A stretch of DNA of 205 nucleotides from Escherichia coli (GTDB taxonomy: Bacteria > Pseudomonadota > Gammaproteobacteria > Enterobacterales > Enterobacteriaceae), in the NCBI RefSeq assembly GCF_003334335.1, contig NZ_QOWQ01000245.1. One strand, given 5' to 3'. Below the pieces are notes generated by a model. It was given only the letters and a program-made list of their open reading frames with translations. It was not told the origin of the DNA and made no database searches. Below are positions 1-205 of this stretch, one piece after another (position 1 is the stretch's first letter; the number at the start of each line of letters is the position of its first letter). The position numbers and the translations under genes are program-made.

Positions 1-205
1 GACCCGGGCGGACCGCCGGGGCCGAAAGGTGACACCGGCCCACGTGGAGAGGCCGGACCACCCGGACCACAGGGTCCCGCAGGCCCTCGGGGAGAAACCG
101 GCCCCGCAGGTCCTGCGGGTCCCGCAGGCAGTGTTCCGGATGCCAGCACATCACAGAAAGGTGTTGTACAGCTGAGCAGCGATACCAACAGCGATGATGA
201 AACAA
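1..205 (+). CDS. Internal fragment of a phage/prophage tail-fibre protein with a collagen-like stalk (Stf-like); partial at both ends
   Basis: Frame +1 (codons starting at nt 1) has no stop codon across the window and translates to [68 protein letters not shown]. The other two forward frames contain stops (TGA at 30-32 and 195-197 in frame 3; TGA at 173-175 in frame 2). The product is biologically coherent: a strict Gly-X-Y repeat followed by a KGxVQLSS-type motif that I recognise from phage side-tail-fibre proteins. No start or stop codon is present, so the gene boundaries lie outside the window. Recognition of the motif is from memory, not a database search. Confidence 0.8.
72..129. repeat. 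Exact 13-nt direct repeat gggtcccgcaggc (72-84 and 117-129), 45 nt apart and in frame; the core cccgcagg also occurs a third time at 103-110
   Basis: Direct string comparison: nt 72-84 and nt 117-129 are both gggtcccgcaggc. The 8-mer cccgcagg is found at 76-83, 103-110 and 121-128, encoding Pro-Ala-Gly each time. The 45-nt offset is a multiple of 9. Confidence 0.9.
103..119. repeat. Inverted repeat / near-perfect palindrome cccgcagg-t-cctgcggg (8-nt arms, 1-nt spacer)
   Basis: The reverse complement of nt 103-110 (cccgcagg) is cctgcggg, which is exactly nt 112-119. It arises from encoding Pro-Ala-Gly-Pro-Ala-Gly with alternating synonymous codons (ccc gca ggt cct gcg ggt). Its existence is certain; a functional role is not demonstrated. 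Confidence 0.85.
136..204 (+). other. Coding segment for a conserved phage tail-fibre motif immediately after the collagen-like stalk ([23 protein letters not shown])
   Basis: The translated segment fits the pattern ASTxxKGxVQLSSxTNSxxET, which I recall as the conserved motif of lambdoid side-tail-fibre (Stf-like) proteins, commonly ...ASTTxKGIVQLSSATNSTSET.... This window carries a variant with V for I and the acidic stretch DTNSDDE in place of ATNSTSE. G+C falls to about 49% over nt 131-205 by hand count. Confidence 0.65.

Follow-up and report, generated by a model that had tools for sequence, protein, structure and literature searches.

The window, as we call the whole 205-nucleotide stretch of Escherichia coli DNA analysed here, ends in a string of codons for acidic residues just after a conserved phage tail-fibre motif, and the question that it raises is whether this string is an anomaly of the fibre or an ordinary allele. 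The initial annotation had described it as an acidic variant in which the KGxVQLSS core is retained and the following eight positions carry three Asp and one Glu, where the usual versions are rich in Ser, Thr and Ala. Translation bears out both parts of this description: frame +1 is open through all 205 bases, nt 136–204 encode 23 amino acids (a.a.), the KGxVQLSS core lies at nt 157–180, and the last eight residues (nt 181–204) read D-T-N-S-D-D-E-T. Taken together, the analyses below make it very probable that the window is the first half of a single Phage_fiber_2 (PF03406; hereafter Pf2) repeat in a side tail fibre of the EPclC type, and that the acidic string is an ordinary, lineage-specific allele.

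The window is real protein-coding sequence and matches annotated tail-fibre genes of prophages with 100% identity. Pfam searches with the window alone matched Collagen (PF01391) to a.a. 4–43 (E 2.1e-7) and Pf2 to a.a. 49–68, which correspond to model positions 1–20 of 42 (E 7.1e-6). In the full gene, the loop runs on 3′ of the window with K-AAT-PKAVK, followed by a helix. The sole DNA repeat in the window is a 45-nt direct repeat (nt 6–50 and 51–95, 71% identical), which represents a 15-a.a. periodicity in the collagen run. No inverted repeats were found in the window, and an Rfam scan of both strands returned sub-threshold chance matches only (mir-324 with 18.5 bits vs a gathering score of 70); the window is without a non-coding element. 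The features of the window and of its parent protein are collected in Table 1.

Table 1 Features of the window (nt) and domains of the full-length fibre protein WP_137466583.1 (residues).
Feature	Position	Strand	Basis or remark
Internal fragment of the 478-a.a. side tail fibre gene (residues 188–255 plus one base)	nt 1–205	+	100% DNA identity
Collagen interruption of the G-X-P-G-G-P-X-G type, (G)DPGGPPG	nt 1–21	+	First Gly lies just 5′ of the window; translation, full protein
C-terminal part of collagen-like Col1, unbroken Gly-X-Y from GPP to GPA (a.a. 4–43)	nt 10–129	+	Pfam Collagen PF01391
Short linker G-S-V-P joining the collagen run to the Pf2 repeat	nt 127–138	+	Translation
Conserved N-terminal half of the Pf2 repeat, with near-invariant Gly and Leu and predicted short beta strands	nt 139–180	+	Pfam PF03406, column conservation, model
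Pf2 variable loop D-T-N-S-D-D-E-T, repeat positions 15–22	nt 181–204	+	Column frequencies and entropies, model
Phage_tail_N (PfN, PF08400)	residues 1–134		E 2.1e-42
Collagen Col1	residues 135–231		Pfam Collagen matches 135–190 and 191–230
Phage_fiber_2 (Pf2, PF03406)	residues 236–277		E 7.8e-16, model positions 1–42 of 42
Collagen Col2	residues about 285–385		Pfam Collagen matches (288–385)
C-terminal domain	residues ~390–478		Without Pfam match

Five complete E. coli genomes carry the window with 100% identity in chromosomal prophage genes, and 39 carry it with at least 90% identity. A search with 150 nt of the window allele, at a threshold of at least 95% identity, gave 101 places, which are spread over 39 of 5426 complete E. 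coli genomes with up to seven copies in one genome. In strain JE86-ST05, the parent gene is the CDS at 5440–6876, with the window at L001:6001–6205; its 478 codons encode WP_137466583.1, annotated as a 'prophage tail fiber N-terminal domain-containing protein', and PHROG 366 'tail fiber protein' spans this protein entirely (E 3e-113). The genes run in the order tail tip J, lom, fibre, DUF4376 protein, YadA-like (Eib) protein and hypothetical protein, and a tRNA-Ser adjoins them; the DUF4376/phrog_1141 protein 3′ of the fibre is annotated as tail fibre-related. This order matches that of P-EibA (J, lom, orf-401-like, orf-191A, eibA, orf-156A). Judged by sequence and gene order, the source element appears to be a P-Eib-type lambdoid prophage of E. 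coli.

The domains of WP_137466583.1 are arranged as PfN, Col1, Pf2, helix, Col2 and C-terminal domain, with a linker separating Pf2 from Col1 and a helix of ~25 residues separating it from Col2. The initial annotation had placed the motif at the junction where the collagen stalk meets the distal fibre domains. This placement does not hold for the full-length protein, in which the Pf2 repeat stands between the two collagen segments and the distal globular domain starts ~150 residues downstream. The full-length protein has no match to PF06820 (PfC), and PfN is not separated from Col1 by a long low-complexity coil; the sequence and Pfam architecture of the protein show neither a gp37-like region nor one resembling lambda orf-314. 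Ghosh et al. 2012 (PMC3368898) sorted the collagen-like proteins of E. coli prophages into four types, EPclA to EPclD, and gave G-X-P-G-G-P-X-G as the typical single Col1 interruption of two-collagen prophage fibres. Their EPclC type has a non-PfC C-terminus, PCoil is often absent from it, and the P-EibA ORF-401 (479 a.a.) is listed there (PMC3368898). For EPclA, the trimeric state and the collagen triple helix were studied in that paper by CD, SEC-MALLS or EM. WP_137466583.1 combines PfN, an interrupted Col1 that Pf2 splits from Col2, a C-terminus that is not PfC-like, and no PCoil-like coil. This Col-Pf2-Col fibre would thus have the EPclC architecture, published in 2012.

How common the acidic loop is depends on how far from the window one looks, and we compared three samples. 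The sample of close homologues comprised 127 proteins, 120 of them the best full-length matches among 7,400, and 125 of the 127 carry a total of 224 Pf2 repeats. All 224 repeats from these close collagen-bearing fibres (the best 120 of 7,400 plus a few) have three or four acidic residues in the 8-mer, namely ATDSDDET (101), DTNSNDET (60), DTGSNDET (39), DTNSDDET (21) and three singletons; the lambda-type ATNSTSET occurs in none of the 224 repeats of the 125 closest collagen-bearing fibres. The window 8-mer differs from the commonest allele of the second repeat (Pf2#2), DTNSNDET, by one residue, Asn to Asp (AAT to GAT). In an IMG/VR sample of 80 loci, ranked by similarity to the window, hence skewed to acidic repeats and used for the collagen-flank test rather than for frequencies, lambda-type and acidic loops were both common (ATNSTSET 16, ATDSDDET 12, DTNSDDET 6, and others).

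The least biased sample was a broad one, in which a profile of five mixed repeat variants matched 3,825 representatives of clusters formed at 50% identity. The 561 repeats analysed came from the top 150 of these, whose ranking mostly follows the number of repeats, with as many as 18 in tandem. The majority residues at the variable positions of these repeats read A-T-N-S-T-S-E-T-L. The Ser/Thr/Ala-rich consensus given in the initial annotation is therefore correct for the family, SSATNSTSETL being the sequence of lambda Stf/orf-401. Asp occupies the three positions at which the window has it in 9%, 13% and 9% of the 561 repeats (8%, 13.5% and 10% when weighted by protein), and Glu at position 21 is the majority residue (64%). 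At least three acidic residues are found in 13% of the repeats (17% weighted) and at least four in 5.5% (8% weighted), while 44 of the 150 proteins (29%) have at least one repeat with three or more. The exact 8-mer DTNSDDET, present 20–21 times among the close homologues and six times in the IMG/VR loci, occurs twice in the 561 repeats. This scarcity and the four-acidic state at 5.5–8% count against an ordinary allele, in that the window loop was not drawn at random from the family consensus.

The complete Pf2 repeat recurs identically in nine deposited phage genomes, P-EibA (AF151091) and eight of the PhiR5/PhiR12 series, the latter with E. coli C, MG1655 and ECOR13 as their listed hosts; the tblastn search of the phage collection with the 40-a.a. 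repeat found just these nine identical copies, its sensitivity being too low for a census of the family. The lambda allele is also present in complete E. coli genomes, with at least 80% of the query covered in 98 and at least 99% identity in 96, laboratory strains such as K-12 and BLR(DE3) being among those listed. By these samples, the acidic form is in the minority across the Pf2 family and standard in the sub-lineage that bears collagen; in absolute terms it is not rare. The rarity implied by the initial annotation fails on the 224 acidic repeats out of 224 in close homologues and on the exact copies in the P-EibA ORF-401 and eight further deposited phages. The alignment that it had proposed as a check goes against it for close homologues, in which D/E is the rule; family-wide, Asp is a minority (9%, 13% and 9%). 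Its two tentative readings, a divergent lineage and ordinary allelic variation, both fared well: the acidic form marks a distinct repeat lineage, that of the collagen-bearing fibres, and the homologue data support the allelic reading.

The acidic residues sit in a variable loop of the repeat. Among the 561 repeats, the scaffold columns D1, G8, L12, S18, A24-A25-T26 and A29-V30-K31 are each 91–100% conserved, G8 and L12 even 99–100%, and all of these residues are kept in the parent protein, where K23 and the residues after it lie outside the 205-nt window and inside the gene. Within the loop, T16, S18, E21 and T22 are kept, and the three Asp occupy positions 15, 19 and 20. Asp15 and Asp19 are in columns of high entropy (1.9 and 2.1 bits), which rank among the most variable of the repeat. 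Position 20, however, is Ser in 84% of the repeats, and Asp there is a real departure which needs a coupled Lys and counts against an ordinary allele. Lys23 accompanies Asp20 in 25 of 51 repeats and occurs in 7 of 510 without Asp20 (odds ratio 69, p 3e-23, in a test that ignores phylogeny), and 18 of the 30 proteins with Asp20 show this coupling. The two classes are recognisable by the signatures 'xDETK' and 'TSETL', and the window repeat carries a net charge of −2 vs a family mode of 0. For the effect on trimer registration suggested in the initial annotation we found no sign: the Asp residues are on variable loop positions, and the scaffold residues G, L, T16, S18, E21 and AAT are intact.

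For an exploratory AF2 model of high confidence, three copies of the module were strung together with Gly/Ser linkers, and monomer weights and just 32 diverse alignment rows were used. The units of this artificial pseudo-trimer had pLDDT values of 91–97, and its pTM was 0.69. In the model, short strands are formed at GVV and LS, the acidic stretch is an irregular loop, a bridge is formed at AA, and a helix extends from PKAVK to ...TRAA. Because the stretch is irregular in the model and its columns are variable, the acidic loop is probably exposed to solvent. Queried with the linker-joined pseudo-trimer, Foldseek retrieved nothing from the PDB. PF03406 was listed in 2021 among the repeat families without a known structure (PMC8078820). 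In a sequence search of the PDB, phage Mu gp49 chains alone contained the Pf2 repeat; going by that search and the 2021 list (PMC8078820), no solved structure is known to cover it.

We propose that the acidic class, x-T-x-S-[DN]-D-E-T-K, is the normal class of Pf2 alleles in collagen-bearing fibres. Its acidic residues would lie in a variable loop, with the conserved beta core KGxVQLSS before it and the conserved start of the AATPKAVK helix after it, and would leave the scaffold residues undisturbed, and the extra Asp at repeat position 20 would be charge-paired with the Lys at position 23. Pf2 and the helix that follows it may form a trimeric, non-collagenous node, a function that we infer, which would end one triple helix or rod and begin the next, giving a knob or knee in the fibre. 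The variant would then be a lineage marker inherited with a Pf2-helix-collagen cassette, not a functional anomaly.

Known fibres offer several parallels for such a node. In the Ur-lambda gpStf, a proximal coiled coil (102–393) is followed by a hinge (394–422) (PMC12617516), and the lambda Pf2 repeat, at about 355–392, lies directly before this hinge. Electron microscopy of the two-collagen rEPclB revealed three globular densities, of which the central one was assigned to Pf2 (Ghosh et al. 2012, PMC3368898). Many family members have tandem repeats with a period of ~45 a.a., which build a shaft. The Sp5 ORF67 product, which contains collagen, Pf2 and PfC, was located at the tail ends by immuno-electron microscopy, and its deletion abolished plaque formation and lysogenisation (PMC5155283), indicating that collagen/Pf2 fibres are functional tail components.

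The acidic loop and collagen are associated in two of the samples. In the IMG/VR loci, all 32 collagen-flanked repeats have at least three acidic residues, and not one of the 70 repeats low in acid is flanked by collagen; deduplication leaves 7 of 16 vs 0 of 25 (p 5e-4, ignoring phylogeny). In the broad sample, 8 of the 10 repeats flagged as collagen-flanked are acidic (p 2.6e-6, again ignoring phylogeny). The two flagged non-acidic cases, P0179 and P0195, were recognised by eye as false positives of the Gly-X-Y regular expression, so the true count is 8 of 8, all of the xDETK class. The association is most simply read as the co-inheritance of a Pf2-helix-collagen cassette, since the collagen-linked cases share the downstream helix ...EAKTKAEEAA...VPGPKG, and since in P0248 the exact DTNSDDETK-helix-collagen block lies behind an unrelated N-terminus.

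The same association might instead reflect a functional adaptation of the loop to collagen, in which Asp and Glu, with Lys23, make inter-chain salt bridges or touch the Lys/Arg-rich Gly-X-Y flanks and so set chain register and stagger or nucleate the folding of the adjacent triple helix; this is the trimer registration raised in the initial annotation. The tie of the xDETK class to collagen flanks is indeed strong in both samples, Asp20 and Lys23 covary, and variable positions 1–3 hold exactly one Asp in each repeat associated with collagen (ATD, or DTN/DTG), which hints at a constraint. As EPclC fibres are without the PCoil trimerisation domain, another nucleator would also be useful to them (PMC3368898). 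However, acidity is not specific to collagen, for in the broad sample 67 of the 75 acidic repeats lack a neighbouring collagen, and the collagen-linked cases represent one related cassette that moves as a block. The helix of ~25 residues and the linker also hold the repeat apart from Col2 and Col1, and, PCoil and PfC being the trimerisation modules in EPclA (Ghosh et al., PMC3368898), the C-terminal domain may serve this purpose here. We therefore regard such an adaptation as unlikely. It is similarly doubtful that the xDETK loop is a Pf2 subclass selected to interface with triple-helical or coiled-coil rods, which would make Pf2(DETK)-helix a portable module for the registration or nucleation of collagen; such a subclass could, for example, set the chain stagger and nucleate the folding of adjacent bacterial collagen by way of an inter-chain ring of salt bridges or bound cations.

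Two more specific explanations of the loop have still lower probability. Phage fibres commonly bear metal ions on their three-fold axes, and the clustered carboxylates of D-x-N-x-D-D-E on three chains might form a divalent-cation site that stabilises the knee or makes it ion-sensitive; oxygen-bearing side chains stand at alternating loop positions, where the other alleles keep D, N or S. We consider this very unlikely, because the canonical EF-hand pattern of PROSITE (PS00018) is not matched in a regular-expression scan, with T at loop positions 8 and 12 where the 12-residue pattern (Gly/Asn-type at 6) calls for a hydrophobic residue and for Asp/Glu, because the consensus ATNSTSET builds the same repeat without carboxylates, and because the neighbouring Lys23 partly neutralises the charge. 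The window repeat might also be a recent deletion hybrid of two repeats, with DTNS from Pf2#2 and DDET from Pf2#1. This idea arises from the close homologues, 99 of 125 of which have two Pf2 repeats bracketing an insert of ~150 a.a.; the window repeat is preceded by collagen like #1 and followed by helix and collagen like #2, and its 8-mer resembles a #2/#1 chimera. Its DNA, however, is just 71% identical to #2 and 59% to #1, and the differences are spread evenly (30-nt blocks with 21–23 of 30 matches to #2 and 18–24 of 30 to #1), showing no signature of a recent crossover, while a single A to G change (AAT to GAT) explains the step from DTNSNDET to DTNSDDET. A hybrid origin is thus highly improbable, even more so than the cation site.

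Returning to the reading as an ordinary allele, the acidic stretch is an already-catalogued, lineage-specific allele in an architecture published in 2012 and is not a notable anomaly. There is little novelty in it, since the window is an exact copy of catalogued genes, the architecture is published, and the allele class is normal in its sub-lineage; the finding as such matters little and its practical value is modest. What it does illustrate is that the lambda-type loop is the Pfam-wide consensus, that collagen-bearing fibres use the acidic, Lys-paired loop class, and that Pf2, helix and collagen travel from one fibre gene to another as a single cassette. Should the acidic loop prove to aid the registration or nucleation of bacterial collagen, it would be of interest for the engineering of recombinant collagen or chimeric phage fibres.

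The window repeat was compared with those of known fibres. One of these is gp49/S of phage Mu (PDB 5yvq, 8ju3, 9ki1), a myovirus fibre without collagen, which carries a Pf2 repeat at residues 111–148, DASLNKKGLVQLTSATDSPSETLAATAKAVK (profile E 1e-14), with two acidic residues in the loop. The cryo-EM paper on Mu built gp49 at its N-terminus only and cites a separate crystal structure of the gp49 C-terminus, and the Pf2 repeat of Mu gp49 may not be resolved in the solved structures.

The lambda Stf (orf-401/orf-314; Ur-lambda gpStf) has a homologous N-terminal collar domain, residues 1–91 of WP_137466583.1 matching the solved collar in PDB 9e7m chain Ta/9mgh (E 4.1e-29; PF08400), and its gene is in the same place after J and lom as that of WP_137466583.1. 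It has one Pf2 repeat with the same conserved scaffold at the end of its proximal rod, which is an Ala/Ser-rich coiled coil in lambda and collagen in WP_137466583.1. The Pf2 loops differ, with ATNSTSETL (one acidic residue) in lambda vs DTNSDDETK (four) in the window protein, and so do the distal parts: Pf2 leads in lambda into the hinge and then a distal shaft of the gp37-like kind, whose tip binds OmpC (PMC12617516), whereas in WP_137466583.1 it is followed by the helix, a second collagen and a small, unrelated C-terminal domain.

Also comparable are the EPclB fibres of Stx phages (933W Z1483 and Sp5 ORF67/ECs1228) and the two-repeat prophage fibres of 616–688 a.a., in which collagen is split by acidic xDETK Pf2 and Pf2#2 is continued by the same helix and Col2 as in WP_137466583.1. 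The EPclB fibres carry PCoil and PfC (Ghosh et al., PMC3368898), whereas WP_137466583.1 is without both. The fibres of 616–688 a.a. have their two Pf2 repeats around a globular insert of ~150 a.a., and their loop alleles are ATDSDDET and DTNSNDET or DTGSNDET, not DTNSDDET.

Among the closest relatives is the ORF-401-like protein of P-EibA (AAF63232.1, AF151091), a member of the EPclC type of Ghosh et al. 2012. It shares with WP_137466583.1 the gene context, the PfN-Col-Pf2-Col organisation with a non-PfC C-terminus, and the G-X-P-G-G-P-X-G interruption, and the two align along their whole length with an overall identity of 69%, gaps included. They differ in the lengths of the collagens, Col1 being longer in P-EibA ORF-401 and Col2 longer in WP_137466583.1, in the linker before Pf2 (GSVASVP vs G-S-V-P in the window), and in the C-terminal ~85 residues, presumed to be receptor-binding, which have strongly diverged. 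In contrast, the N-terminal 190 residues are identical, as are the Pf2 repeat, the next helix and the start of Col2, with the acidic loop included.

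The window protein departs from the Phage_fiber_2 (Pf2) repeat family far more at the C-terminal end of its repeat than in its acidic loop. The repeat ends in M-A-E-V-Q in place of the family's Y-D-L-A-N, whose D, A and N each occur in 94-97% of repeats, and the following helix runs on as AAKTKAEEAATRAA into the second collagen segment (Col2), with no turn. This repeat end, together with the helix running on into Col2, is the true hallmark of the collagen-linked subclass.

In the acidic loop itself, all 224 collagen-associated repeats of the close homologues (in 125 of 127 proteins, 120 of the 127 being the best full-length matches of 7,400) carry exactly one Asp among the first three variable positions, the triplet being either A-T-D or D-T-N/G. 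Its place seems to alternate between positions 1 and 3, a possible sign of a structural constraint. Among 561 family repeats, taken from the best 150 of 3,825 representatives, Lys23 accompanies Asp20 in 25 of 51 cases versus 7 of 510 otherwise (p 3e-23), and this strong covariation between the two positions suggests a charge pair. It defines an 'xDETK' loop class set apart from 'TSETL'.

Features in and around the window (L001, the JE86-ST05 prophage locus)
Feature	Window (nt)	L001	Strand	Remark
Col1 interruption, G-X-P-G-G-P-X-G type	1-21	5998-6021	+	First Gly just 5' of window
Asp20 codon	196-198
Lys23 codon	begins 205
Divergent C-terminal repeat end		6241-6300		Residues 268-287, just downstream of window
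YadA-like gene, 487 aa		7833-9296		Downstream of fibre and DUF4376 partner
157-aa ORF		9383-9856		After YadA-like gene; counterpart of P-EibA orf-156A

Two Pf2 repeats, one on each side of a globular insert of ~150 aa, are present in 99 of the 125 close homologues (P0030, P0049, P0095 and 96 others; loci L010 and L014-L017), whereas the window protein has a single repeat and lacks the insert. In these relatives, repeat 1 carries ATDSDDET and repeat 2 DTNSNDET or DTGSNDET, and the insert contains …GCLEKAKNGDD…YFHWRVDYSTKNKPD. A further protein, P0248 (481 aa), has at residues 303-370 the window's exact Pf2 loop followed by the helix and VPGPKGDRGEPGAPG collagen, all behind an entirely different N-terminus (MAEKYKTIITNAGAEKMAAA...), which indicates that the Pf2-helix-collagen cassette is swapped among unrelated fibre genes. 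A single collagen interruption of the type at the window start is typical of two-collagen prophage fibres (Ghosh et al. 2012, PMC3368898).

The DNA at L002:5440-6876 (NZ_AP022811.1, strain JE86-ST02) matches the intact 478-codon ORF of JE86-ST05 base for base, but RefSeq records it as two pseudogene fragments ('incomplete; partial in the middle of a contig'). The split call appears to be an inconsistency of annotation, for which the low-complexity, collagen-like region is probably to blame. Frames 1 and 3 of the window's minus strand are open end to end, and lambda has an annotated hypothetical ORF, orf206b (L003:1248-1868, minus strand), that lies antisense to stf across its low-complexity part. 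Such open frames, a by-product of GC-rich Gly-X-Y coding, are not evidence of antisense genes.

The YadA-like gene and the 157-aa ORF are lysogenic-conversion cargo adjoining the tail-fibre module. The YadA-like product is presumably an Eib-type immunoglobulin-binding adhesin; its gene occupies the position of eibA in prophage P-EibA.
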